From the NCBI GenBank assembly GCA_964540995.1, contig CAZIOU010000003.1:576-64575 (forward strand): DNA of 64,000 nucleotides, given 5' to 3'. Below, one piece after another: positions 4,228 to 60,723 of this stretch. The notes beneath the pieces were generated by a model that did not search any database, was not told the origin of the DNA, and saw nothing but the letters and a program-made list of their open reading frames with translations. The position numbers and the translations under genes were made by a program. This DNA is from an uncultured Gammaproteobacteria bacterium. GTDB lineage: Bacteria > Patescibacteriota > Patescibacteriia > UBA1558 > 2-01-FULL-52-15. Within the stretch, counting starts at the first letter, position 1. Every line of letters starts with the position of its first letter.

Positions 4228-4572
4228 ATGCCAAAGAAACGTCAAAACACTATTACCCTTAATCAATTGGCCACCCTCATCAAAGGGGTTGAACAATCAG
4301 TAAGGGGTGATATATCGGGTATTAAAGGTGAGCTCAAAAATTTAAATAGTAGGGTCGATGAGGGGCTTACTAAGACCACTAAAACCTACCATACCCTAAA
4401 TGATTTAGCTTTGATGATCAAAAAGGGTTTTGACGCCACACCCACGAGGGAAGAAATGAATCACAGATTTAATCAAGTTGATAAACGATTTGATGCGGTA
4501 GAGAAGCGATTAACCAGCTTGGAGCAAAATAATTCCATCGTTCAGCGTGTCAAAGATGCATTAGCATTATAA
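4228..4572 (+). CDS. hypothetical coiled-coil protein
   Basis: 114-aa ORF bracketed by a good promoter and a strong terminator. Confidence 0.5.
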   Translation: MPKKRQNTITLNQLATLIKGVEQSVRGDISGIKGELKNLNSRVDEGLTKTTKTYHTLNDLALMIKKGFDATPTREEMNHRFNQVDKRFDAVEKRLTSLEQNNSIVQRVKDALAL

Positions 4573-4582
4573 TAATTTATGA

Positions 4583-4620
4583 AAACCCGAAGAGTTTGCG
4601 TTAGCCTTCGGGTTTTTTAT
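4583..4620 (+). terminator. rho-independent terminator
   Basis: Stem AAACCCGAAG..CTTCGGGTTT followed by TTTTTAT. Confidence 0.75.
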
Positions 4621-4674
4621 TTCCTTGTACAGGAAAGATTAATTCATGGTATAATAAGCCTGTTAAAATCTGTT

Positions 4675-6453
4675 GTGACGAAAACAAAAATACAACTGAT
4701 CTCTTCTTGGAAACAGTTTGCTGCCTTAGCTTTCGTAGCTGCGGTGGTTGTTCTATTTCCGCATAGTAGTCACGCCGCTTCACTCTACATAAGCCCTTCA
4801 TCCGGCAAGATTAGTGCCGATGGTAACATTACCGTCGGTGTTTATGTTAATAGCGAAGGTCGTGCAGTCAATAATGCCGAGGGTACCATTAGCTTCCCCG
4901 AAGATACCTTAGAAGTTATCTCGCTCAATCGAGCTGGATCAATCCTGTCTATTTGGGTTGAAGAACCAAATTTTTCCAATGATTCTGGTCGTATTTCTTT
5001 TAACGGTGGTTTACCAACGCCAGGATTCAATGGTACTGGCGGTAAGATTTTTTCAGTCACCTTTCACGCCAAGAAGTCGGGGAGCGCTTTGCTTTCATTC
5101 CCAGCTGCTTCTGTCTTGGCCAATGACGGTCTTGGCACTAATGTACTAAGTGGCACGGGTAGCGCTAATTTCACCATTGATGGCGGCACACCTCCTCCAG
5201 CCGAGACTCCGCCACCAGCACCAGTCACACCTCCAGTGACACCGCCAGCAGAAACTCCTCCAGTTAATAGCAATGTGCCACGAGCGCCATTGGTAAGCTC
5301 TGGTTCACATCCAGATCAGAATAGTTGGTACAACCAAAGTACGGCTTCTTTCCGTTGGGTGTTGCCTTCCGGCATAACTTCAGCACGTACTAAGATCAAT
5401 CAAGAAGCCAACTTCACTCCGACCGTAACCTATAGTCCAGCTATCAGTTCCAAATCAGTTAGTGATATTACTGACGGTGTGTGGTATTTCCATGTACAAT
5501 TACGCAATCAAGCTGGTTGGGGCGGTATAGCTCACTATCGTATTCAGGTTGACACGACTGCGCCCAAACCATTCGACATTCTGTTGCAAGATGGTGGATC
5601 GACGAGTAAGCCGGTAATTACTTTCGCGGCACAAGATGATGTCTCTGGTGTCGATCATTATGATGTTATTATCGACAAAGGTAATCCGATACGCGTCACC
5701 GAAAGTACTTACACTCTAGATTCTTTGGCCAGCGGTAGCCATAACGTAGAGGTACGTGCTTATGATCGTGCGGGTAATGTCACTACTAGTACCAAAGATA
5801 TCTCGATACTTTCAGTTTCTAGTCCGATCATCACCGATTACAGTCGTGAAGTAGAGTCAGGAGCTAAGATTGATGTCAGAGGAACGGCACTTGCTAATGT
5901 AACGATCAAAGTCTATATCCAACGCGATGGTCTGACGATTAGCAGTCGTGAGGTTAAGAGTGACGCTCAAGGTAATTGGTCATCAAGCGACAAAGCGCCG
6001 AGTGAACGTGGTGCCTATGAATTGTGGGCGGAAGCTATCGATGCTGCGGGAGTCAAGAGTGCACCATCGGATAAGTTAGCATTAACAGTCACCCTACCAA
6101 TCTTCGTCCGCATCGGTCAATTAGCAGTTGATTATCTGACTACTGTTGTTACCTTGATATTCTTAGTCATACTATTGTGCTTGATAATCATCTTCTTGAG
6201 CCGTAAGTTCTGGTTATGGCACAAACGTAGCTCGACTGATGTGCGTTATATCGAGCAAAGTGTCGAGACCGCTTTCCGAGCGTTGAGTACCAAGATTAAT
6301 GAACAGATAGAATATCTTGATGGCAAGTCCGGTCTGACCAAAGATGAACGGCGGGTTCGTGACCGCTTACAACAGGCCTTGGGTGTCTGTGAAAGTTTCA
6401 TTACGAAGCGCGTCAAGAAGCTGAGCAGCAAGAGTCGTAAAGGTCGTTCCTAG
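4675..6453 (+). CDS. membrane-anchored cell-surface protein: cohesin-like N-terminal domain, Pro/Thr-rich linker, Ig-like repeats, C-terminal TM and basic tail
   Basis: The ORF track begins at 4579 inside the upstream terminator. An extended -10 (TGgTATAAT, 4647-4655) and an in-frame GTG at 4675 give a plausible signal peptide (MTKTKIQLISSWKQFAALAFVAAVVVLFPHSSHA). Linker PPPAETPPPAPVTPPVTPPAETPP; C-terminal helix VVTLIFLVILLCLIIIFL. Confidence 0.6.
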   Translation: MTKTKIQLISSWKQFAALAFVAAVVVLFPHSSHAASLYISPSSGKISADGNITVGVYVNSEGRAVNNAEGTISFPEDTLEVISLNRAGSILSIWVEEPNFSNDSGRISFNGGLPTPGFNGTGGKIFSVTFHAKKSGSALLSFPAASVLANDGLGTNVLSGTGSANFTIDGGTPPPAETPPPAPVTPPVTPPAETPPVNSNVPRAPLVSSGSHPDQNSWYNQSTASFRWVLPSGITSARTKINQEANFTPTVTYSPAISSKSVSDITDGVWYFHVQLRNQAGWGGIAHYRIQVDTTAPKPFDILLQDGGSTSKPVITFAAQDDVSGVDHYDVIIDKGNPIRVTESTYTLDSLASGSHNVEVRAYDRAGNVTTSTKDISILSVSSPIITDYSREVESGAKIDVRGTALANVTIKVYIQRDGLTISSREVKSDAQGNWSSSDKAPSERGAYELWAEAIDAAGVKSAPSDKLALTVTLPIFVRIGQLAVDYLTTVVTLIFLVILLCLIIIFLSRKFWLWHKRSSTDVRYIEQSVETAFRALSTKINEQIEYLDGKSGLTKDERRVRDRLQQALGVCESFITKRVKKLSSKSRKGRS

Positions 6454-39368: not shown

Positions 39369-39456
39369 CGTTAGTTATTAGTTACATGTTACTAGTTATT
39401 AGGGAAGAGCTAATGAATCAATCTGACCCTAATAACTAATACCTAATAACTGCTCG
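39369..39456. repeat. TTATTAGTTATTAGGG / CCCTAATAACTAATA inverted-repeat spacer
   Basis: Arms at 39373-39400 and 39428-39452. Related copies at 45715-45755 and 55130-55200. Confidence 0.6.
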
Positions 39457-45668: not shown

Positions 45669-45834
45669 AAAATAGAAGAAAGTAGAATGTAGAAAGAAGT
45701 AAGGGAAAGAAGCTAGAGTTTGCCCTTCCCTAATAACTAATAACGAATGACGAATATCAATTCAACCAGCTAGATTGCTTCCCTCATTGTCATGGTTCTA
45801 CAAGCTCACCATGACAATTCGGTCGCAATGACAG

Positions 45835-50006: not shown

Positions 50007-51194
50007 TTAAGCGTTTATTTTTTTCTCCACGATGTCTACCATGGCGTCAACCGTTTTGATCCAAGAATAGCGCTCCATCAAGGTTTTCTTGGCTTGCGCT
50101 TTGGTCTCGTCGCCAATGTCAGCAATAGCCAGTTGCAGCTGGTCATGGAAAGCCTCATAACTATCAGCAATATAGATCTGGTCATGGAACATTTCGGCTC
50201 CACTCCCCGCCGTTGCTACCACCGGTTTACCGCAAGCTAGATATTCGTACATTTTCATCGGATTGGTAGAGGCGATGAATTCATCTTGTTTGTGCGGTAT
50301 CAGACCAATGTCAAATTGTTGGATGTACATAGGAGATTCAGAATATTCTTTGTAACCGAGGAAATGAATATTGGGTAAGGCTTGTAACTCTTTGGAATCT
50401 TCGGCGTACCAGACAGGACCACAGAGTACGAAGGATTTGTCAGGATTTTTCTCGGCCAGATATTTGATCAACGGCAGATCGACTCGTTTCTGGATGACGC
50501 CAATGTAACCAATAATCGGTCGTGGCAAATCAGCAATATCACGATTGACCAGACGCCACGGCTGTTGATAATGTTTTAGATCCACGCCATTGGGGATCCA
50601 ATAGACATTAGGTTGATTGTCGAAAACTTTCTGCAAATCTTCGGACACCGTGAAGATGACGTGACTGTGTTTCTTGATGTATTGATAGTTGTCTTGCAAT
50701 CGTTTCTTGATGAAACCATAGGAGCTGTGCTCGGCCCAGTTATCAACCGCGTCGAAAATAGTGAATTCAGCTTTGAGCGGTTCGAGATATGGCATGATCG
50801 GCGGGAAGAAGGACCAGACCACCGTAGTTTCAAATCCCAACTTGGTCAATGTCTGACGCAAGCGTTTGATGTAGCCTTGGGGATCGAGATGGAAAGAAAT
50901 GTCAGAGTAAACAAATTGCCGATCCGATAGTTGGATCGTTCGTTGCCACAGTGAACGTTGGATCACCTTGCCGCTCTTGAGCGGAGTGATGATAGTTTCT
51001 TTGAAATTACGAGCAGCTCGTTTCCAAGTTAGTGGCGGATAGTCGATGCAGATAATTTTGCGAAATTCGTGTCGCTTGGCCAATTCTTGCCAGATGTGGA
51101 AATTGCGGTTATGCACACCGTGCTCCCACTCGGTGAAATTGGACATATTGATCAAGACCAGATCGATCGGTTTCATATTAGGACAGTATAGCAT
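50007..51194 (-). CDS. family-1 (GT4-like) glycosyltransferase
   Basis: C-terminal 'FDIGLIPHK..E..STNPMKMYEYLACGKPVVAT'. Confidence 0.85.
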   Translation of the reverse strand: MLYCPNMKPIDLVLINMSNFTEWEHGVHNRNFHIWQELAKRHEFRKIICIDYPPLTWKRAARNFKETIITPLKSGKVIQRSLWQRTIQLSDRQFVYSDISFHLDPQGYIKRLRQTLTKLGFETTVVWSFFPPIMPYLEPLKAEFTIFDAVDNWAEHSSYGFIKKRLQDNYQYIKKHSHVIFTVSEDLQKVFDNQPNVYWIPNGVDLKHYQQPWRLVNRDIADLPRPIIGYIGVIQKRVDLPLIKYLAEKNPDKSFVLCGPVWYAEDSKELQALPNIHFLGYKEYSESPMYIQQFDIGLIPHKQDEFIASTNPMKMYEYLACGKPVVATAGSGAEMFHDQIYIADSYEAFHDQLQLAIADIGDETKAQAKKTLMERYSWIKTVDAMVDIVEKKINA

Positions 51195-52347
51195 TAAGCT
51201 GGTTAGCCTTGGTGGTCCAATCAGGTAAGGTTTGGAGCTGATTGTAAGCGGCTTCGCCTAATTGTTGGCGCACTTCTGGATGGTCTAGTAGGTATTTCAG
51301 ATTAGCACTAATCGCTTCCAGTGAGGTGCTATCAACCAACAAACCGCTAACTTCGTGCTGCAGTATTTCTTCGGCTGAAGTATGTTGACCAGCGATGATC
51401 GGCAAGTGGAAATGAGCAGCGTCGAGATAGACGATGCCATAGCCTTCGATATCAGCACCAAGATTCAGTGTGGGTAACATGAAGATATCGGCTGCCTGAT
51501 AGTAGTTAGCAATATCCTCGTCACTGACATCAGTTAGGAAGGAAACCTGATCATTAATTTTCAGTTCGGTTGCGAGATGCTGTAAGGAAGCTAATTCTGG
51601 ACCGTTGCCAACGATGAGATAGTGACTATCATCACGACCCAAGGCATTCATCGCTTTCAACATCAGTTCATGATTCTTGCGTTTCACTAGACGACTAACA
51701 GTAAGGATGATCTGTTGGCCGACAAACTGTTGCTTGATAGCGGCGACACGCACTGGATCGGCTACCAGTCGTCCTGTCATGTACGGTGTGATCACGGTTA
51801 ATTTATTGGCCGGCAAAAGTGGCGCTACGATGGATCGGGTTGTTTCGCTGTTGACGATGACGTGATGGGCATTGGTCAGTAGACGAATGGCAGTCGTGCG
51901 ATCTTTGGCCAAAGCCAGATTGATATCCAGACCGTGTAATGACAAAACGTAGGGAAGGTTTAATTTCTTGCCGACTTTTTCCGCGATCAAGCCCAGCGGC
52001 AAAATGTGTGGTGTGAAAATAAGTTCAATCTTTTGTTGCTGACACAATTTCTTGACATTACGATAACCAGTTAGCCAGCGCGGGCGGAAGAGCTTTCCGA
52101 GAAGAGGTACTCGGTGCTCGTTACTAGGTACTCGGGAAGACGCGGGCGACCGAGTCGCGAGTAGCGAGTCGCTAGTACCGATTTGTCCGTCTCGAGCACC
52201 AAGTGACGAGTCCCCAGCCCCGCTCTTCATATCATGCGCCACAATATAATTTTGCTGTGGCAAATGTGAAAATAAACCGTAGCAATAATTGGCAATGCCG
52301 CCGCGGAAGGGGAAATATTCGTGTGTGAGGAGAAGGGTTTTTTTCAT
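51178..52347 (-). CDS. family-1 (GT4-like) glycosyltransferase carrying an in-frame insertion of repeat element B
   Basis: N-terminus 'MKKTLLLTHEYFPFRGGIANY' and C-terminus 'EGYGIVYLDAAHFHLPIIAG' are typical GT4. Residues about 42-85 (SGAGDSSLGARDGQIGTSDSLLATRSPASSRVPSNEHRVP) are low-complexity and are encoded by the element at 52090-52215. Confidence 0.8.
   Translation of the reverse strand: MKKTLLLTHEYFPFRGGIANYCYGLFSHLPQQNYIVAHDMKSGAGDSSLGARDGQIGTSDSLLATRSPASSRVPSNEHRVPLLGKLFRPRWLTGYRNVKKLCQQQKIELIFTPHILPLGLIAEKVGKKLNLPYVLSLHGLDINLALAKDRTTAIRLLTNAHHVIVNSETTRSIVAPLLPANKLTVITPYMTGRLVADPVRVAAIKQQFVGQQIILTVSRLVKRKNHELMLKAMNALGRDDSHYLIVGNGPELASLQHLATELKINDQVSFLTDVSDEDIANYYQAADIFMLPTLNLGADIEGYGIVYLDAAHFHLPIIAGQHTSAEEILQHEVSGLLVDSTSLEAISANLKYLLDHPEVRQQLGEAAYNQLQTLPDWTTKANQLNAILS
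52085..52215. repeat. palindromic MITE-like element, copy B (inside a CDS, inverted relative to A)
   Basis: GGTACTCGGTGCTCGTTACTAGGTACTCGGGAAGACGCGGGCGACCGAGTCGCGAGTAGCGAGTC...GAGTCCCCAGCCCC. Shares GAAGACGCG..CCGAGTCGCGAGTA.CGAGTC and CCCAGCCCC blocks with revcomp(A). Confidence 0.7.
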
Positions 52348-52470
52348 GGGGGTTGGGAATTGGGAATCAGGAATTAGGCGTTAGGAATTGGCAATTTGGT
52401 TTTTAGTAAATTATGGCCTCTCTGATTCCTACTGCCTAATGCCTACGGCCTAAGGAACTGGATTAATGAT

Positions 52471-53910
52471 TTAACGTTTGAGACTCGCTAACAAAGTACG
52501 TAAGTCAGCTGGTTTAAGTAGCCCAAGGATCCAGGTTCCTGCCAGGTAGGCTAGAGCAGCCAAAGCTATAGTTAGGTAGATATTGAGGTAATGGACTAGG
52601 AAAAGGATCAGCAGGGCCATCAGGAAGGCCATTATAAGCGTTTTAACGGCCATTATAAGCGTTTTGGCCCTGTTATAGGCTATATGGCGGTTGAGCACCC
52701 ATAAGCTCAAAATAAAGACCAAAATGGTACTAGTGGTCGAAGCCGCAGCCGCTCCCCGTGCCCCGTACATCGGGATCAGGATAAGGTTGCTGGTCACATT
52801 CCAGATAAGACCAGCAGTCACGATGGCGGTCTGCGCCCGCTGTTGGTTAATGGCATTGAGCAAAGAGCCCAAAGGAAAATTGATAAACAGAAATGGTAAA
52901 TTGGTGATCAGGATTTGTAAGGGCAAGACAGCATTGCCGAAAGCGCCGGTATAAATATGCGGTATCACATACGGTGCAGACACGATCAAACCTAAACTAA
53001 TGGGAGCAGCGACTAATAACAGATAGTGAATCGAACGAGTGAAGGTGACGGCTAGTTGCTCACGATCGTGCTGCCAGTAGTAGGCAAAGGCCGGATATAG
53101 TGCAGCGACGAAAGCTAATGGTATGAATTGGAAAGCAAAAGTAATTTTGTAGGCCACAGAATAATAACCGACTTCGGTGCTGCCCTGCATCAAGCGCAAC
53201 AAGACAGAATCAGTATAGGCATATAAGCGTGTAAAGACTGCAGCCAGAGCAAACGGTACGATCAAAGTCCATAATTCACGCAGTAGACCTTGATTCCAAG
53301 TCCAGTGCAGATGAAATCCGACTTTGCGCCGAGCGACCCACCACGAGTAAGCGAAGTTGAAGCTGCTGGCCACTACCAGGGCAACGATCAAAATGTCGAC
53401 GGGGAAGTGCAGACGTATCAAGGTGAAGCCAATGACGAGAATGATGAATTGGTGTAGCAGCGTGGCGAAACTTTCGTAGCCTAAGTTTTGTTTACCACGG
53501 ATACCGGAATAAAAAATTAAGGTAAAGCCATCCATAACCATGGCGATAGCGGCGACGATGATCAAGATGGCAGTCGCTAGATCGTGTACCAAGAAAGGGG
53601 TGATCAATCCCAACGCTACAATGACAAACAGTGACGTGACGATCTTGAGCGAGATGATCTGGTTAAATAATTTATCAGCGCCCTCCCCGCCTTTGGCCAC
53701 TTCGCGGGTAGCGATAGCGGACATACCGAGGTCAGCGAAGACGGCAAAGATTAGGACATAGGAAGTAGCGAAGAAGTATTTACCGGTATCCTCTGGGCCG
53801 AGGTAGCGGGCCAATAAGGTGAAATAAACAAAAGAAATGACCTTCTGCAAGGTCAGGGCAATCATATACCAGGCGGCATTGGAGGTGACTTTCTGGGTCG
53901 AAACTGACAT
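52471..53910 (-). CDS. Wzx-like oligosaccharide flippase (polysaccharide biosynthesis protein, MOP superfamily)
   Basis: 14 predicted TM helices and a typical N-terminal region. It contains a 21-bp in-frame tandem duplication at about 52600-52645 (KTLIMAV KTLIMAF). Confidence 0.75.
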   Translation of the reverse strand: MSVSTQKVTSNAAWYMIALTLQKVISFVYFTLLARYLGPEDTGKYFFATSYVLIFAVFADLGMSAIATREVAKGGEGADKLFNQIISLKIVTSLFVIVALGLITPFLVHDLATAILIIVAAIAMVMDGFTLIFYSGIRGKQNLGYESFATLLHQFIILVIGFTLIRLHFPVDILIVALVVASSFNFAYSWWVARRKVGFHLHWTWNQGLLRELWTLIVPFALAAVFTRLYAYTDSVLLRLMQGSTEVGYYSVAYKITFAFQFIPLAFVAALYPAFAYYWQHDREQLAVTFTRSIHYLLLVAAPISLGLIVSAPYVIPHIYTGAFGNAVLPLQILITNLPFLFINFPLGSLLNAINQQRAQTAIVTAGLIWNVTSNLILIPMYGARGAAAASTTSTILVFILSLWVLNRHIAYNRAKTLIMAVKTLIMAFLMALLILFLVHYLNIYLTIALAALAYLAGTWILGLLKPADLRTLLASLKR

Positions 53911-54054
53911 ATGGGCAGTATAGCAAATTAGACTAATTTATCTAGTGTTTTGGCAAGGGGAAGATAGGGAGCTCGCAAAGGGTAATTCGTAATACGTAAT
54001 GCGTAATTACGTGCTACACCTTACGTTGTACGCCGTACGTCTTACGCTTTACGT

Positions 54055-54100
54055 CTCTAAAAAAATCCCCCCATACACGAATGTACGAGGGGATGGTTGG
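54055..54100 (-). terminator. terminator (shared motif with 55195-55243)
   Basis: Minus strand: CCATCCCCTCGTACA..TGTATGGGGGGATTTTTTTAGAGA. Confidence 0.6.
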
Positions 54101-54970
54101 TCAGACTGGTTGCTCTTCGACTGGCTTTTGCTGTTCGGCAGCTTTGGCTTCAGCATCCAGAATTGCGGTGGCTTGATCGGCCCATCGAGCACGACGCAGG
54201 CTGCTCATGATGCGGAAGTCGTCCCAGATATGCAGTTTGAGTATTAGTTGCTCCAGCTCAACACGCATTCTGCGACCGACTTCGGATTTGATCTTGCCCT
54301 TCTCGGTTCGTTCTCGATTACTTCTTTCGATCACGACGCTGACCCCGATACCCAAGGTGTCGATTACCTGATTCATGTAGTCCTCGTCACCTTGGGCAGA
54401 ATAATGACCATTCATCCATACTAGTAGCTCTGTCGTAGACAGTCGGCCAACTGACCGTCCCAAATCATCAAGAAGTTGACACGTACTATTTGGAGTCCAG
54501 GCTTGTATTTTCTTCCATCTGTATTCACGGTCGTCAGTGCAAACAAACGAACACGACCGAAATATTCCGCGATTGCGAAGTTGGAGGATGAAGTGTCGGA
54601 TCTTGACCGCGTGTCGCTCGTCCAGCTCGTTGGCATAGTAGAAATACCATCCATCACCGATCTCTAAGGGTGCTATTAGATGTGTATGTTGTTTACCATT
54701 CACATCTTCGAACTGGTACACTTCCTGACCAATGACGGAGTAGCGAATTAGGTCACTGAGATTGATCAGGAACCAGAAAACACAGACAGCAGATAGCACG
54801 AAGCAAACTTCCTGTAGGATACCATTGTTGACATTACACATTATGCCCAGATAAATGGCACCGAAAAGCCATAGCGCTAGACTAGAAATACCTTTGGCAC
54901 ATGAATAACGCCACAACTCTTTTTCGCAGCCGCAGTTCCGTTGTTTGCTTTTTGCTTCTTCGTCTGACAT
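54101..54970 (-). CDS. membrane protein with N-terminal Cys cluster, 2 TM and a conserved C-terminal domain (tandem paralog 1)
   Basis: 'NCGCEKE..C', two TM helices, 'VYQFEDVNGKQHTHLIAPLEIGDGWYF' homologous to the downstream paralog. Confidence 0.55.
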   Translation of the reverse strand: MSDEEAKSKQRNCGCEKELWRYSCAKGISSLALWLFGAIYLGIMCNVNNGILQEVCFVLSAVCVFWFLINLSDLIRYSVIGQEVYQFEDVNGKQHTHLIAPLEIGDGWYFYYANELDERHAVKIRHFILQLRNRGIFRSCSFVCTDDREYRWKKIQAWTPNSTCQLLDDLGRSVGRLSTTELLVWMNGHYSAQGDEDYMNQVIDTLGIGVSVVIERSNRERTEKGKIKSEVGRRMRVELEQLILKLHIWDDFRIMSSLRRARWADQATAILDAEAKAAEQQKPVEEQPV

Positions 54971-55194
54971 TGATGCTCCTTAGGGTGAATCTGTATCTGG
55001 TTGTTAGATACTATTTCACCGGAAGAAGGTGCTAAGATAGGCCATTTCTGCGAGATGGCAGAACATTCCTATCAGAGCGGTGTAAATGAACTGTTGCAGT
55101 TTTACTATGGATGGAGTCATTTGTCAATCGTTATTAGTTATTAGGGTAGGTTGCCCTCTCTTCCCGAATAACGAGTAACTAATAAAAAATATCT

Positions 55195-55243
55195 CTCTTC
55201 AAAAAAATCCCCCCGCACTATGCGTACGAGGGGATGGTTATCA
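55195..55243 (-). terminator. terminator (paralogous to 54055-54100)
   Basis: Minus strand: CCATCCCCTCGTACGCATAGTGCGGGGGGATTTTTTTGAAG. Confidence 0.6.
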
Positions 55244-56089
55244 TCAGGCGACGGTTTCCGAAGGTTGCGTCGGTTCTGATGACAGCTGTTCTGCCGTGAG
55301 AGATGAACCAGGGTAGAGTCGCTTGAACTCCAATCCAGCAACTTCTTCCCATTCAGCGACTTGCTTCTGGTCACGGAATTGTGCCAAACTCTCCTCGAGT
55401 GTGCGTCTCATTGCTGCGGCATTGGGTGAGGGCTGCGTCTGCCGACCAAACTGCGCCTGACGTCTGGCCAGACACATGGCGACACCGAGACGGAAGGTGT
55501 GCTCCTGGTACTCAGACCAGTCGTCACAGGAGTTGATGATAGTTAAAGCCTCACCAACTGAGACTCTCGGTCCTCTATTACAGCGGTCTCGAAGTTCAAC
55601 CGAATCAGAGTGATACGCCGAGTAAGCTCGAATCTCTTTCCAGGAGTAATCGACGGGATTGAGCACATACGACCTTGTGTTTGACCAACCATTTGGGCGG
55701 ATAACTACGATATACTTTTTGATCTGGATCGCCGTTCCGTTGGGATTGTTGCAGTGCCAGATCTGACCGACACGGATCGGAAGCGTGACATGCAGATGTT
55801 CTACGCCTTTGGCATCTTGGAAAAGGTAGAGTTCCTGCTTGCTACTGCAAATCATAAGGATCACTGCGATGACCATACATATGAATGAAGTGGGTAGTAC
55901 GAATTGAGAGGAGTTAGGTGTTAGCTGTTGATTCTGCAATGAGTCAAATAGAGCGGCAATGAACAGTAGGATACTGATTAACCCAAAGATAATTGAGAAT
56001 TTGGCTGAATGCTTAAGCCGTTCCTCGGATTGAGAATCAGGAACTGTTACGCAATATTCACAGCCTGGTTTGTACATATTGAACCTCAC
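55244..56089 (-). CDS. membrane protein with N-terminal Cys cluster, 2 TM and a conserved C-terminal domain (tandem paralog 2)
   Basis: 'PGCEYC', two TM helices, 'LYLFQDAKGVEHLHVTLPIRVGQIWH'. Confidence 0.55.
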   Translation of the reverse strand: MRFNMYKPGCEYCVTVPDSQSEERLKHSAKFSIIFGLISILLFIAALFDSLQNQQLTPNSSQFVLPTSFICMVIAVILMICSSKQELYLFQDAKGVEHLHVTLPIRVGQIWHCNNPNGTAIQIKKYIVVIRPNGWSNTRSYVLNPVDYSWKEIRAYSAYHSDSVELRDRCNRGPRVSVGEALTIINSCDDWSEYQEHTFRLGVAMCLARRQAQFGRQTQPSPNAAAMRRTLEESLAQFRDQKQVAEWEEVAGLEFKRLYPGSSLTAEQLSSEPTQPSETVA

Positions 56090-56245
56090 GACGTCAGGCC
56101 AGATTCACCTAACGACAGAGTGCCAAGATACAGCCATCCCTATCAGTTGATTGGGCATTCCGTATCAGGGCGATGTGTAAATGAACTAGACCTACCCTAC
56201 TGATTTTCGTCTCTACCGTCAAGCCAACCTGCCTGCTGCAGCTTG

Positions 56246-56300
56246 TCGTTTCGACCGAAGTCCCGCTCGGGTGGGACGAGCAGAGAAACCTTTATTATAC
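56246..56300 (-). repeat. inverted copy of the GIY-YIG-flanking repeat
   Basis: GTCGTTTCGACC[hairpin]GAGCAGAGAAACCTTTATTATA equals revcomp of the conserved ends of 56856-56917. Confidence 0.6.
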
Positions 56301-56396
56301 TTTGGGTGGCAATACAGTATTTAGTAAAGGTTTCTCTGCTCGTTATCTTATGGATAGCTGGGAAAAGTCACAATCATAATTGGTTGCTGTGTAGTG

Positions 56397-56458
56397 TGTA
56401 ATAAAGGTTTCTCCGCTCTCTACGCCTGCGGCTTCGTTCGGTCGAAACGACAGAGCAA
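56397..56458 (+). repeat. direct repeat R1 flanking the GIY-YIG gene (3' side)
   Basis: GTGTAATAAAGGTTTCTCCGCTC[22-nt hairpin]GTCGAAACGACAGAGCA. Confidence 0.7.
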
Positions 56459-56460
56459 TA

Positions 56461-56787
56461 TTAATCTTCGCGAGGGACTATCTCCTCCCCCGTCAGAGCA
56501 AAGTCATACAAGTCGATGAATTTGGGATTATAGATTTGGATGAGTTGTAATTTTTTATTTCTGTTCCAGCGTTTGATTTGCTTCTCGCGCGCGATGGCCT
56601 CTAATGGACTACCATAATGTTGGAAGAAAAGCAGTTTGTGTGTATTGTAGTGGGCGCTAAAACTTCGAGGATTATATTTTGTCCGATGTTCATTAATTCG
56701 CCGCTCAATGTTATTCGTAATGCCCACGTAAATACAGGTATTGTATTTGTTACTAATTATATAGGTGGTGTAGATGCGATCTGGCAT
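56461..56787 (-). CDS. GIY-YIG nuclease family protein (second copy, diverged)
   Basis: 'IYTTYIISNKYNTCIYVGITNNIERRINEH'. Confidence 0.8.
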   Translation of the reverse strand: MPDRIYTTYIISNKYNTCIYVGITNNIERRINEHRTKYNPRSFSAHYNTHKLLFFQHYGSPLEAIAREKQIKRWNRNKKLQLIQIYNPKFIDLYDFALTGEEIVPRED

Positions 56788-56855
56788 TGGAGGTTAAATA
56801 AACTGTAATAATTTTTTTTGGCCTGTCTGGCTACGCAAACTTGGAGAAGTCTCGA

Positions 56856-56917
56856 TTATGTGTAATAAAGGTTTCTCCGCTCACCTCTCGCCGCGAGAGG
56901 TTTGGTCGAAACGACAG
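56856..56917 (+). repeat. direct repeat R2 flanking the GIY-YIG gene (5' side)
   Basis: TGTGTAATAAAGGTTTCTCCGCTC[ACCTCTCGCCGCGAGAGGTTTG]GTCGAAACGACAGAGCA. Ends are identical to R1; the middle hairpin differs. Confidence 0.7.
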
Positions 56918-56924
56918 AGCAGAA

Positions 56925-56960
56925 AATAAAACAAGGTATCGAATGATACCCTGTTTTTTG
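56925..56960. terminator. bidirectional terminator after rpsI
   Basis: CAAGGTATC-GAAT-GATACCCTG with A-tract 5' and T-tract 3'. Confidence 0.65.
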
Positions 56961-57018
56961 TAATATATTGTGTCTAGCGTTTCGACCATCCCCTCGGCTT
57001 TGCTCGGGGTTCCGCAAG

Positions 57019-57423
57019 CTAACGCTTGCTCCATTGAGGGGCGCGACGAGCACGTTTCAAACCTGGCTTCTTACGTTCTTTCTTGCGAGAATCGCGAGTG
57101 AGTAAACTATTTTTCTTCAAAGTAGATTTGACTGTCTCGTCCATTTTGAGTAGAGCGCGGGCAACAGCGTGACGGACAGCTTCTGATTGGGAAGATTTAC
57201 CACCACCGGAAACTTTGACGGAGATGTTCAACCGATCCTGACCCACTAGCTTCATTGGTTCGAGGATATTCTCTTGCCACTGGGCATAGGGGAAATACTG
57301 CTTCCAATCAACGTCATTGACGGTCATGGTGAAAGCCTGATCATCAGATTTGTTGATGCGTAGACGGGCAACAGCAGTTTTGCGGCGACCGACAGTGATA
57401 ATAGTGGTAGTTCGAGCAGTCAT
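57019..57423 (-). CDS. rpsI: 30S ribosomal protein S9
   Basis: C-terminal 'GLKRARRAPQWSKR'. Confidence 0.95.
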   Translation of the reverse strand: MTARTTTIITVGRRKTAVARLRINKSDDQAFTMTVNDVDWKQYFPYAQWQENILEPMKLVGQDRLNISVKVSGGGKSSQSEAVRHAVARALLKMDETVKSTLKKNSLLTRDSRKKERKKPGLKRARRAPQWSKR

Positions 57424-58172: not shown

Positions 58173-58248
58173 AATAGTTGGTAGCTTGGTAGGTTATTAG
58201 CTTAGTAGGAATGTAGGCTGGTAGATAAGTAGATTGGTAGTTGTGTAG

Positions 58249-59016
58249 CTAGGCAGTAGCTTCGGCTGATTCAGCCTCTTCTTCAGCGGCTTCAGCTTTC
58301 TTGGACTTTTTCTTAGGCTTAACTTCAACGGCTGATTGTTCTTTGATGAAGTTGAAGTGCTCGATCAAGATATCAGATGACATAGTGATAGCTTCTTCAC
58401 CGGTCATTGATCCATCGGTGGTGATAGCCATGACCAAACGTTCATAGTCAGTCTGTTGACCGACACGGACGTGTTCGATCTCGAAGCCGACATTGATAAC
58501 TGGTGAGAAAATAGCATCGATATCGATGGCTCCGATCTCGCCTTTGTGCTTGCTCTGGGTATCGACCGCTAGATAACCACGACCGCGGCTGATAGTCAAT
58601 TCCATCTCGAAGACGGCTTTCTTATCAGTCAGGGTGGCGATCACCATATCGGGGTTGGTGACTTCAGCTTGAGCGTTGGGTTTGATGTCAGCACCGGTGA
58701 CTACTTTGTCGCCTTTGGCGGACAGGGTCAAGACAACCGGCTCATCGCCATGAAGCTTAACGTTTAATTTCTTCAAATTCAAAATGATATCTACCACGTC
58801 TTCTTTGACATGGTCGATAGTCTGAAATTCATGCTGGACACCAGAGATCTTGATACTGGTGACAGCAGCGCCGGGTAGCGACGATAAGAGGACGCGTCGC
58901 AGTGAATTGCCGAGGGTGACACCGTAGCCAGGGAAACAAGGCTCAATGACTACTTCGTAGACATTGGCTTTCTTTTCCTTATAGGATACGGATTTTGGTA
59001 ATTCGATTAATCCCAT
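58249..59016 (-). CDS. rpoA: DNA-directed RNA polymerase subunit alpha, N-terminal domain only (no recognisable alpha-CTD)
   Basis: Typical alpha-NTD (255 aa) ending in an acidic tail 'KKKSKKAEAAEEEAESAEATA'. No helix-hairpin-helix CTD follows before rpsD. Confidence 0.85.
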   Translation of the reverse strand: MGLIELPKSVSYKEKKANVYEVVIEPCFPGYGVTLGNSLRRVLLSSLPGAAVTSIKISGVQHEFQTIDHVKEDVVDIILNLKKLNVKLHGDEPVVLTLSAKGDKVVTGADIKPNAQAEVTNPDMVIATLTDKKAVFEMELTISRGRGYLAVDTQSKHKGEIGAIDIDAIFSPVINVGFEIEHVRVGQQTDYERLVMAITTDGSMTGEEAITMSSDILIEHFNFIKEQSAVEVKPKKKSKKAEAAEEEAESAEATA

Positions 59017-59654: not shown

Positions 59655-59754
59655 AGGATTGTTAATTGATTAATTGATTCATCGACTAATTGGCTACTCC
59701 TCTATCTTCTCGCTGAATCAATTGCTCTATTATTCTATTAATCTATTAATTAAA

Positions 59755-60636: not shown

Positions 60637-60723
60637 TTGTATAATAGATTAATGGAGTAATAGATTAATTGTCCCTACTTCAGTGCTGTGCAATTAATCA
60701 ATTATTCGATGATTCAATGATAT

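Follow-up and report, generated by a model that had tools for sequence, protein, structure and literature searches.

The stretch of DNA analysed here, referred to as the window, comprises 64,000 nucleotides (nt) of contig CAZIOU010000003.1 (assembly GCA_964540995.1, positions 576 to 64,575 of the forward strand), which was deposited as an uncultured Gammaproteobacteria bacterium and falls within the Patescibacteriota in the GTDB lineage. It contains two tandem genes on the minus strand, gene A (54101..54970, 289 amino acids (aa)) and gene B (55244..56077, 277 aa), which belong to an orphan, hypervariable family of membrane proteins of the Candidate Phyla Radiation (CPR) with its own conserved, probably riboregulatory leader and predicted translational control. 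An earlier note on this DNA had located the pair between envelope-glycan genes and a GIY-YIG cassette, and this is indeed where they lie: a polysaccharide flippase gene (52471-53910) and a glycosyltransferase gene occur on one flank and a GIY-YIG gene (56461-56787) on the other. Related loci and annotated proteins are denoted below by L and P numbers, respectively.

Protein A possesses an N-terminal C-G-C(x8)C cluster, two membrane helices, a beta-rich domain with an HxH motif and a helical charged tail; protein B has an N-terminal CxxC, two membrane helices, an HxH domain and a helical tail. The start of gene B is the ATG at 56077, which is the start of the annotated 277-aa product P0004 and of all its orthologues. 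The GTG at 56089, from which the gene had been read previously, falls inside its Shine-Dalgarno sequence GTGAGG, 8 nt upstream of the ATG. A and B are 25% identical over 167 aa (BLASTP, E=6e-12), and the domain motif Y.F.D..G..H.H...P is present in both (VYQFEDVNGKQHTHLIAPLEIGDGW in A and LYLFQDAKGVEHLHVTLPIRVGQIW in B), so that the paralogy and the common architecture claimed for them in the earlier note, including the shared domain, hold on alignment. Hydropathy likewise gives the two membrane helices expected for each protein, with Kyte-Doolittle peaks at residues 27 and 51 in A and at residues 29 and 59 in B. The claim of an N-terminal CxC(x)nC in both proteins is correct for A, in which the third Cys follows nine residues on, but not for B, which has C-E-Y-C, in line with the family consensus CxxC. 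An AlphaFold2 (AF2) model built from 16 sequences, with a predicted local distance difference test score (pLDDT) of 74.8, contains helices at 16-46 and 53-80, nine strands within 82-178, and four helices at 179-280. Four to six Lys/Arg residues precede helix 1 and the short inter-helix loop has none, which makes a cytoplasmic position likely for the N-terminus as well as for the large C-terminal part. Family proteins are about 260-340 aa long, with the beta-rich domain, at the start of which the HxH stands, and the helical charged tail each comprising approximately 100 aa. All 18 confident aligned members possess a Cys pair before helix 1 (mostly CxxC, CxC in the A-type and CC in one), an HxH approximately 15 residues after helix 2, and, downstream of the HxH, near-invariant G, D and W residues and an S..A..R..L stretch. 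These four invariant metal-type ligands are predicted to share one side of the membrane, adjacent to both helix ends, which suggests that the Cys pair and the HxH form a single C2H2 metal site at the inner membrane face.

Both genes are preceded by a structured leader RNA of approximately 70 nt. The leader of gene A (55024..55093, minus strand) consists of a conserved 5' end AGUUCAUUUACAC, a helix P1, a 4x4 internal loop AAUG/AUGG and an 18-nt hairpin P2, and scores 75.5 bits against a covariance model derived from 10 leaders in a hand-checked alignment; the leader of gene B (56115..56188, minus strand) has the same architecture with a different P2 sequence and scores 84.6 bits. The order of elements is the same throughout: approximately 6 nt after the TAxxxx of the promoter follows a CAGUUCAUUUACAC-like 5' end, then P1, the symmetric 4x4 loop (5'-AAUG / 5'-AUGG), P2, the closing GGCAC, and a pyrimidine tract that reads CUUCU, CUCU or CUUUC. 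The P2 hairpin of the close clade has 18 nt and that of other members 15-21 nt, and the whole 5' untranslated region (UTR) is about 110-125 nt long in the window and about 100-145 nt in relatives. Minimum free energy (MFE) folds of seven leaders, each folded separately, all give the P1/internal loop/P2 structure. In the hand-checked alignment 85% of the cells are paired, versus 27-43% with slid partners, and 11 pairs have changed on both sides. A larger alignment of 14 leaders was fitted to the covariance model and is thus biased towards it, although the independent MFE folds and the hand alignment agree with it. It has 85.8% of cells paired versus 28-46% in slid controls, and compensatory changes on both sides in 16 out of 19 pairs; none of 500 shuffles of this alignment reached the observed value on any of five measures.

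The leader structure is real and specific to the family. In the window and the family loci, the covariance model matches only upstream of family genes, and it recovers leaders outside its training set: two in L139 (64% GC; 47.9 and 22.9 bits), upstream of two of three tandem paralogues, and one in L138, upstream of P0015. Similar, diverged leaders that the model does not score precede the genes in L134 and L140 and gene 2 of L139. A scan of metagenomes with the primary-sequence pattern of the leader gave at least 120 unrelated stretches, and none of the matches listed has the P2 hairpin; in 846 kb of such unrelated DNA, used as decoys, the model found no match at E<=1. The sense strand scores 85 bits and the reverse strand 11 bits, and G-U pairs are frequent in the helices; because of this asymmetry and these pairs, the structure must be one of RNA and not a DNA palindrome. 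The leader thus combines what characterizes a structured cis-regulatory RNA, namely a covarying structure on one strand at a fixed position upstream of one class of genes. An Rfam 15 scan of 53800-57100 at E up to 10 gave no match over the leaders and only weak ones on the terminators and on a hairpin next to the GIY-YIG gene, while a scan of the whole window at the gathering threshold returned one tRNA. A small upstream open reading frame (ORF) starting from the conserved AUGG (9-11 codons in four leader types) is unlikely; the leaders of L136 and L135 have no AUG, the peptides are not conserved and a Shine-Dalgarno sequence is lacking.

Downstream of the leader, the remainder of the gene A 5' UTR (54971..55023, minus strand) holds a CUUCUU tract directly after P1, a variable hairpin, and the Shine-Dalgarno sequence AAGGAG, which is predicted to pair with the tract; in that of gene B (56078..56114, minus strand) a CUCUG tract and a variable hairpin precede the Shine-Dalgarno sequence GUGAGG. 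This pairing across the variable hairpin occurs in every MFE fold. For gene A the duplex amounts to -12.9 kcal/mol (z=-3.7), and A-type leaders clearly beat their shuffles (z about -4), but B-type leaders do not. Sequestration of the Shine-Dalgarno sequence is, therefore, plausible as a prediction from folding.

Each of the two genes forms a self-contained unit. The promoter of gene A (55099..55127, minus strand; TTGACA, 17 nt, TAAAAC) and that of gene B (56194..56222, minus strand; TTGACG, 17 nt, TAGGGT) are putative ones, read from the sequence, and a scan with a promoter consensus did not call that of gene A. The same TTGACx-17-TAxxxx layout occurs ahead of the leaders in L001, L007, L008, L009, L134, L135, L136, and L140. 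Intrinsic terminators follow gene A (54055..54096, minus strand; a 13-pair stem and a T-run) and gene B (55197..55237, minus strand; a 12-pair stem and a T-run). Their arms, CCATCCCCTCGTAC and GGGGGGATTTTTTT, are identical and their loops differ, and CCATCCCCTCGTAC occurs at no other site in the 64 kb, versus 0.21 occurrences expected by chance, so that the near-identical terminators described previously are indeed there and a generic genome-wide terminator consensus can be rejected. The earlier note concluded from them that the whole gene-plus-terminator unit had been duplicated. Each gene does carry its own terminator, but the duplication is not a recent one, and the non-coding part common to A and B is not limited to the terminator, since the promoter and the 5' leader are shared as well. 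A and B are old paralogues, because A-type and B-type orthologues both exist in relatives. As their coding sequences are only 25% identical and both types are kept as orthologues, the flanks must have been kept alike, the leader by function and the terminator by concerted evolution or selection. Near-identical terminators within one genome are found in the window, in L001, and in genes 1 and 3 of L139, and the sequence differs between genomes, the window and L001 having one type and L139 another. This fits with concerted evolution of the flanks or with selection for a common 3' end.

The family is small. An exhaustive HMMER profile search of 1.84 billion protein representatives yielded 11 representatives at E<=0.001; the 18 confident members include corrected starts and extra tandem copies from related loci. 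Word-indexed protein searches gave close relatives only, a protein homologue search with a wide alignment gave 4 proteins only, and a related-locus search with a narrow alignment gave one genome locus. The orthologues of gene A, P0002 and P0003, are 76% identical to it. The only taxonomically labelled member, P0009, derives from a Candidatus Komeilibacteria metagenome-assembled genome (MAG; Patescibacteria, Parcubacteria group, CPR), and as the neighbouring genes are 82-91% identical, the organism of the window is a close relative. According to the exhaustive profile search, nearly all bacteria lack the family, and its distribution is patchy even within the CPR. That no known family could be recognised has been borne out for A, B, and all 19 members by searches of Pfam, NCBIfam, PADLOC, and PHROGs, which gave no credible match but scattered sub-threshold ones to Amastin, MARVEL, DUF6593, and DUF983. 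A sequence-profile search of the PDB gave nothing below E=0.15, and Foldseek searches of the AF2 model against the PDB and BFVD gave nothing at E<=0.001 (best E=0.055, with unrelated top matches). The conserved domain thus has no homology to a known family in these profile and structure searches, and homology to a characterised housekeeping family, which would have contradicted the earlier note, was found in none of the Pfam, NCBIfam, PDB, or Foldseek searches. In PADLOC-DB 2.0 there were no matches for A and B, and only scattered single matches at E>0.01 for the 19 members; in PHROGs A and B have no match at E<0.1. The family was absent from 50,697 phage records (tblastn) and 72,556 plasmids, and it has no relative in IMG/VR. 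The second gene in L009 was considered as a degenerate paralogue without the Cys and His residues, but with an hhalign probability of only 18% it is not used as evidence. Our search of the literature on Komeilibacteria and on hypervariable membrane proteins of the CPR revealed nothing on this locus; we regard the protein family and the RNA element as undescribed.

The two genes are situated between the rplM-rpsI operon, which is nearly invariant, and the glycan cluster, and their locus behaves as a hypervariable spot driven by recombination. Compared to L001 and L002, which are from aquatic metagenomes, the identities are 100% for S9, 100% for L13, 99.6% for RpoA, and 97.3% for the flippase, versus 76% for A and 69% for B. 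Compared to L009, they are 87% for S9, 82% for L13, 91% for RpoA, and 86% for the flippase, versus 24% for the family protein; the only neighbour outside the 82-91% range is the second gene of the glycan cluster, GT1, at 66%. By sliding-window nucleotide identity, gene A combines two old alleles in a mosaic. Its 5' third, i.e., the first ~360 nt encoding the N-terminus and the membrane hairpin (54611..54970, minus strand), is 90-100% identical to the allele of L007 and 35-73% to that of L001, whereas the remaining ~510 nt (54101..54610, minus strand) are 95-100% identical to the allele of L001 and 48-85% to that of L007. The number of synonymous substitutions per synonymous site (dS) versus L001 is 4.7 for A and 2.2 for B over the first 85 codons (tail and membrane hairpin), where the allelic diversity is concentrated. 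In gene A it is 0.29 for the beta domain, within the background, and 0.03 for the helical tail (codons 181-end), which is below the genome background, as flanking genes show values of 0.1-0.3. The ratio of non-synonymous to synonymous substitutions (dN/dS) versus L001 is 0.2-0.4 for A and B and 0.00-0.14 for the neighbours, from which we conclude that both are functional genes. The overall pattern is that of old, deeply diverged alleles exchanged by recombination, and not of rapid local mutation or decay.

Taken together, we regard these descriptive findings as very well supported. Every copy is an autonomous expression unit composed of a putative sigma-70-like promoter, a structured 5' UTR, a pyrimidine tract, the coding sequence and its own terminator. 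Concerning the meaning of the findings, we propose that a factor acting in trans (a protein, metabolite, or ion) may bind the purine-rich internal loop of the leader and shift the balance between free and sequestered Shine-Dalgarno sequence, by which each copy would be gated at translation. The protein itself would be a membrane-anchored, metal-stabilised cytoplasmic module, in which the membrane hairpin with its short outside loop would make contact with a partner that varies, e.g., a phage, a competitor toxin, or a host surface, and would form the specificity part, with the cytoplasmic domain as the conserved output. Such contact would account for selection of a balancing or diversifying kind and for the variation in copy number. 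The gene neighbourhoods keep the position on the rpsI side within the clade, and no conserved partner gene is shared across the loci compared; the protein, therefore, probably acts alone, and its task may be a strain-specific interaction at the membrane, i.e., exclusion of phages or competitors, immunity, or host contact. The suggestion made previously of a sensor or a phage-exclusion protein fits with the hypervariability and to that extent stands; it receives no support from PADLOC or PHROGs or from the phage collections.

Several observations weigh against this proposal. The duplex of tract and Shine-Dalgarno sequence is weak compared to shuffles in B-type leaders (z about -0.8), and the C2H2 site is deduced from conservation alone, with CxC and CC variants that are unusual for zinc. 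The allele of A in the window is known from one MAG contig, so that the mosaic may have arisen during assembly, by the joining of strains that co-exist; the L001 allele of A was assembled identically in several samples. The variability of the membrane hairpin could partly reflect loose constraint. Furthermore, none of the searches of Pfam, NCBIfam, PADLOC, PHROGs, and the PDB gave a homologue that would connect the protein with an activity, and there is neither a match to a defence family nor a toxin, phage, or mobile gene alongside A and B. We consider the package as a whole, that of translationally gated, stand-alone C2H2-metal membrane proteins engaged in strain-specific interaction such as conflict or immunity, a tentative one, with a chance somewhat below even. 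More doubtful is the stronger version, in which the leader represents a riboswitch or protein-responsive riboregulator of a new class, known to date only from upstream of this family, that gates C2H2-metal membrane proteins whose recombination-diversified hairpins decide on conflict or host contact.

Alternatively, A and B may be accessory proteins of the neighbouring envelope-glycan pathway, e.g., by regulating the flippase, polymerase, or ligase or by serving as scaffolds for them, and their variability would then track that of the surface glycan. In the Komeilibacteria-like clade the gene order is rpsI, an optional GIY-YIG gene, one or two family genes, and the flippase gene, so that the family genes are always directly upstream of the flippase/glycosyltransferase/Wzy cluster. 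The distant member P0013 is placed divergently next to a LytR-CpsA-Psr gene, and the first glycosyltransferase (88%) is more variable than the flippase. However, A and B each have a promoter, leader, and terminator of their own, as the flippase gene has its own conserved promoter, and the flippase is 97% conserved versus 69-76% for A and B. Other members occur in settings that differ, since the distant loci contain a ComM-like gene (L134), a LytR-CpsA-Psr gene (L135), ParAB (L141), or an array of three tandem copies (L139), the maximum of the 1 to 3 copies found per locus, and those beside the ComM-like gene or ParAB or in the array are without glycan genes. The large domain is, in addition, predicted to be cytoplasmic. 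We therefore consider an accessory role in the glycan pathway unlikely.

It is similarly unlikely, and slightly more so, that A and B are housekeeping membrane proteins for sensing or buffering of metals or redox state, with a metal- or metabolite-sensing riboswitch as leader and neutral drift as the source of variation. The invariant Cys pair and HxH would suit such a role, as would the leader, in which a small hairpin carries a conserved internal loop and a Shine-Dalgarno sequence predicted to be sequestered follows, a layout that is known from small riboswitches. On the other hand, a housekeeping protein is difficult to reconcile with a family that is absent from nearly all bacteria and patchy even within the CPR, and a housekeeping sensor would not usually be expected in 1-3 copies. 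The dS of the variable segments, which is far above the background, and the mosaic alleles point to allele exchange and not to drift.

A third possibility is that the units are mobile or exchangeable cassettes, like those of integrons or miniature inverted-repeat transposable elements (MITEs), and that leader and terminator serve mainly as DNA homology arms or recombination sites. This would agree with the terminators of tandem units, which are near-identical within a genome and different between genomes (window and L001 versus L139), with the evident recombination breakpoints in gene A, and with the heptamer-array hairpins and the GIY-YIG insertion alongside. Conservation of the leader is, however, RNA-like, with compensatory changes, G-U pairs, and strand asymmetry; no integrase or transposase occurs in any of the locus gene tables; the position beside rpsI is fixed across the clade down to an S9 identity of 64%; and the family is absent from the plasmid, phage, and IMG/VR collections. 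A cassette origin seems, therefore, very improbable. That A and B are chance ORFs or pseudogenes in decaying DNA with terminators alike by chance is suggested by nothing other than the lack of annotation and is hardly conceivable given the intact reading frames in 19 homologues from genomes of 43-64% GC, the dN/dS of 0.2-0.4, and a terminator arm found twice versus 0.21 expected.

Some further features of the locus deserve mention. Upstream of the flippase gene the stretch CCTTGCCAAAACACTAGA(T/A)AAATTAGTCTAATTTGCTATACT is nearly identical in the window (53930-53975), L001 (11005-11050), and L009 (8715-8760), and the DNA just before it is unrelated among the three. This stretch, at which the variable spot has its downstream edge, probably contains the promoter of the glycan operon. 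On the other flank, the GIY-YIG ORF (56461-56787, minus strand, 108 aa) is bordered at 56243-56350 and 56831-57000 by GTCGTTTCGACC...GAGAAACCTTTATTA elements, which form long near-perfect hairpins, one of which (56271-56349) has a weak Rfam match to mir-451. Both the window and L006-L009 have the gene, with L008 and L009 showing the same hairpin flanks as the window. It is absent in L001 and L002, where the entire cassette is missing at the corresponding site, which suggests that the gene and its flanking hairpins form a small mobile or homing element. Locus L006 (CAZPQR010000033.1) shows the layout of rpsI, GIY-YIG, and gene B as in the window, with ribosomal proteins that are 95-99% identical. 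It was deposited as “uncultured Gammaproteobacteria bacterium” and the related L009 as Candidatus Komeilibacteria; one of these labels is likely wrong, probably because of the binning of the 7.8-kb L006 contig. L008, from a distant relative, is the only locus in which a family gene seems to belong to a two-gene operon: in this region (4275-4760) it overlaps (ATGA) a downstream gene for a 161-aa multi-helix membrane protein without a Pfam match, and the two have one common terminator.

Many intergenic hairpins in the window have arms that consist of inverted arrays of 7-nt (sometimes 8-nt) tandem repeats, and they often occur right after a terminator. Two of them border the A and B units: one (53978..54056, minus strand; ACGTAAN / TTACGNA) lies just after the terminator of gene A and belongs to a type that is intergenic genome-wide and not specific to the family, and the other (55113..55196, minus strand; GTTATTN / NAATAAC) follows the terminator of gene B, its distal arm reaching into the -35 box of the gene A promoter. 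Together with these (53978-54056 and 55113-55196), such hairpins are found at 39371-39451, 45677-45756, 52356-52453, 58181-58250, 59658-59750, and 60642-60721. The repeat unit, e.g., (GTTATTN)n ... (NAATAAC)n or (ACGTAAN)n ... (TTACGNA)n, varies by site, and the periodicity and the inverted layout are constant. We know of no earlier report of this inverted form. Among the relatives, they occur in L001 (9745-9860), L008 (4830-4880), L009 (7020-7115), and L139 (1-40 and 3690-3721), and the relative with 64% GC has them as well (GGGGNAN). Abundant intergenic heptamer repeats are reported for Beggiatoaceae and cyanobacteria (PMC4679880). Within the glycosyltransferase ORF at 51178-52347 (minus strand), a heptamer or 14-mer repeat pair (52108-52181) is found at the position of a low-complexity insert …LGARDGQIGTSDSLLATRSPASSR…, which has another length and another sequence in L001 and L009. 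A heptamer-array element thus seems to be included in the reading frame of this gene.

A large part of bacterial diversity belongs to the CPR, yet a function has been assigned to only about half of the genes of these bacteria, and to our knowledge very few of their regulatory RNAs are known. A single orphan membrane protein would be ordinary for these organisms, but its combination with a covarying RNA, metal-type ligands, and an allele-exchange hot spot by the ribosomal operon is not. The leader RNA is compact, covaries strongly, and is clearly associated with one class of genes, which makes it suitable for screens for a ligand or a binding protein, and the protein family offers four invariant metal-type ligands at the membrane face. 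The hot spot, located among genes that are 97-100% conserved, points to a target on which selection at the strain level is strong, in organisms with a presumably host-attached life. If the proteins do take part in conflict or host contact, the family would provide a handle on how uncultured cells distinguish partners, competitors, and phages; even otherwise, it is a clean orphan family with its own riboregulator that is worth adding to libraries of the Rfam and Pfam type.

Comparison with known systems further delineates the locus. Integron cassettes have an attC site at their 3' end, are associated with a nearby integrase, and are usually without promoters, whereas the A and B units have a promoter-like site and a leader, their locus tables hold no integrase, and the 3' hairpin is a terminator with a G+C stem and a T-run; an integron cassette was, therefore, rejected. 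Diversity-generating retroelements use a template repeat and a reverse transcriptase and introduce adenine-specific changes in a C-terminal variable region. The variation at our locus consists of replacement of whole N-terminal allele segments with saturated dS, by which a target of such an element was rejected; reverse transcriptases are absent from the locus tables, and a direct repeat of the variable segment was not searched for. The anti-sigma-like function suggested previously was rejected as well. Like the family proteins, zinc-binding anti-sigma (ZAS) factors (HxxxCxxC) are membrane-anchored and have a cytoplasmic Cys/His motif near the N-terminus. In the family, however, this motif is split, the Cys pair preceding helix 1 and the HxH following helix 2, and there are two helices and a large domain inside the cell. 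A, B, and the 19 members gave no match to zf-HC2 (PF13490) at E up to 1, and the gene tables of approximately 10 loci contain no sigma-factor family.

In outline the family may be compared with bPH_2 proteins such as YdbS and YdbT, which combine a two-helix hairpin with a small, beta-rich cytoplasmic domain capped by a helix, and which occur as tandem paralogues with a link to stress or resistance. None of the 19 members matches PF03703, and the Foldseek match of the AF2 model to a PH domain is insignificant (E=1.2); our family has the Cys/His ligands and the 100-aa helical tail in addition. Small DUF983-like proteins share with it an N-terminal CxxC followed by a two-helix hairpin, and one member matches DUF983 at E=0.02, which is below the threshold, but the HxH beta domain and the helical tail belong to the family only. 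Exclusion and immunity genes (superinfection exclusion, abortive infection (Abi) membrane proteins, and orphan immunity arrays) are, like A and B, small stand-alone membrane-protein genes in tandem diverged copies, with mosaic alleles and a variability far above that of their neighbours. In contrast, A and B are not prophage-borne and have no cognate toxin, and they occupy a fixed chromosomal position beside the ribosomal operon. The leader, finally, in outline resembles the THF-II/folE, NMT1/xanthine, and nadA motifs and the leaders of ribosomal-protein genes in having about 50-70 nt and two helices around a conserved internal loop. As in other small riboregulators, it is situated in the 5' UTR directly upstream of a segment able to occlude the Shine-Dalgarno sequence; its AAUG/AUGG loop and conserved 5' end are distinct from those of the known ones, and the element is restricted to a single protein family.

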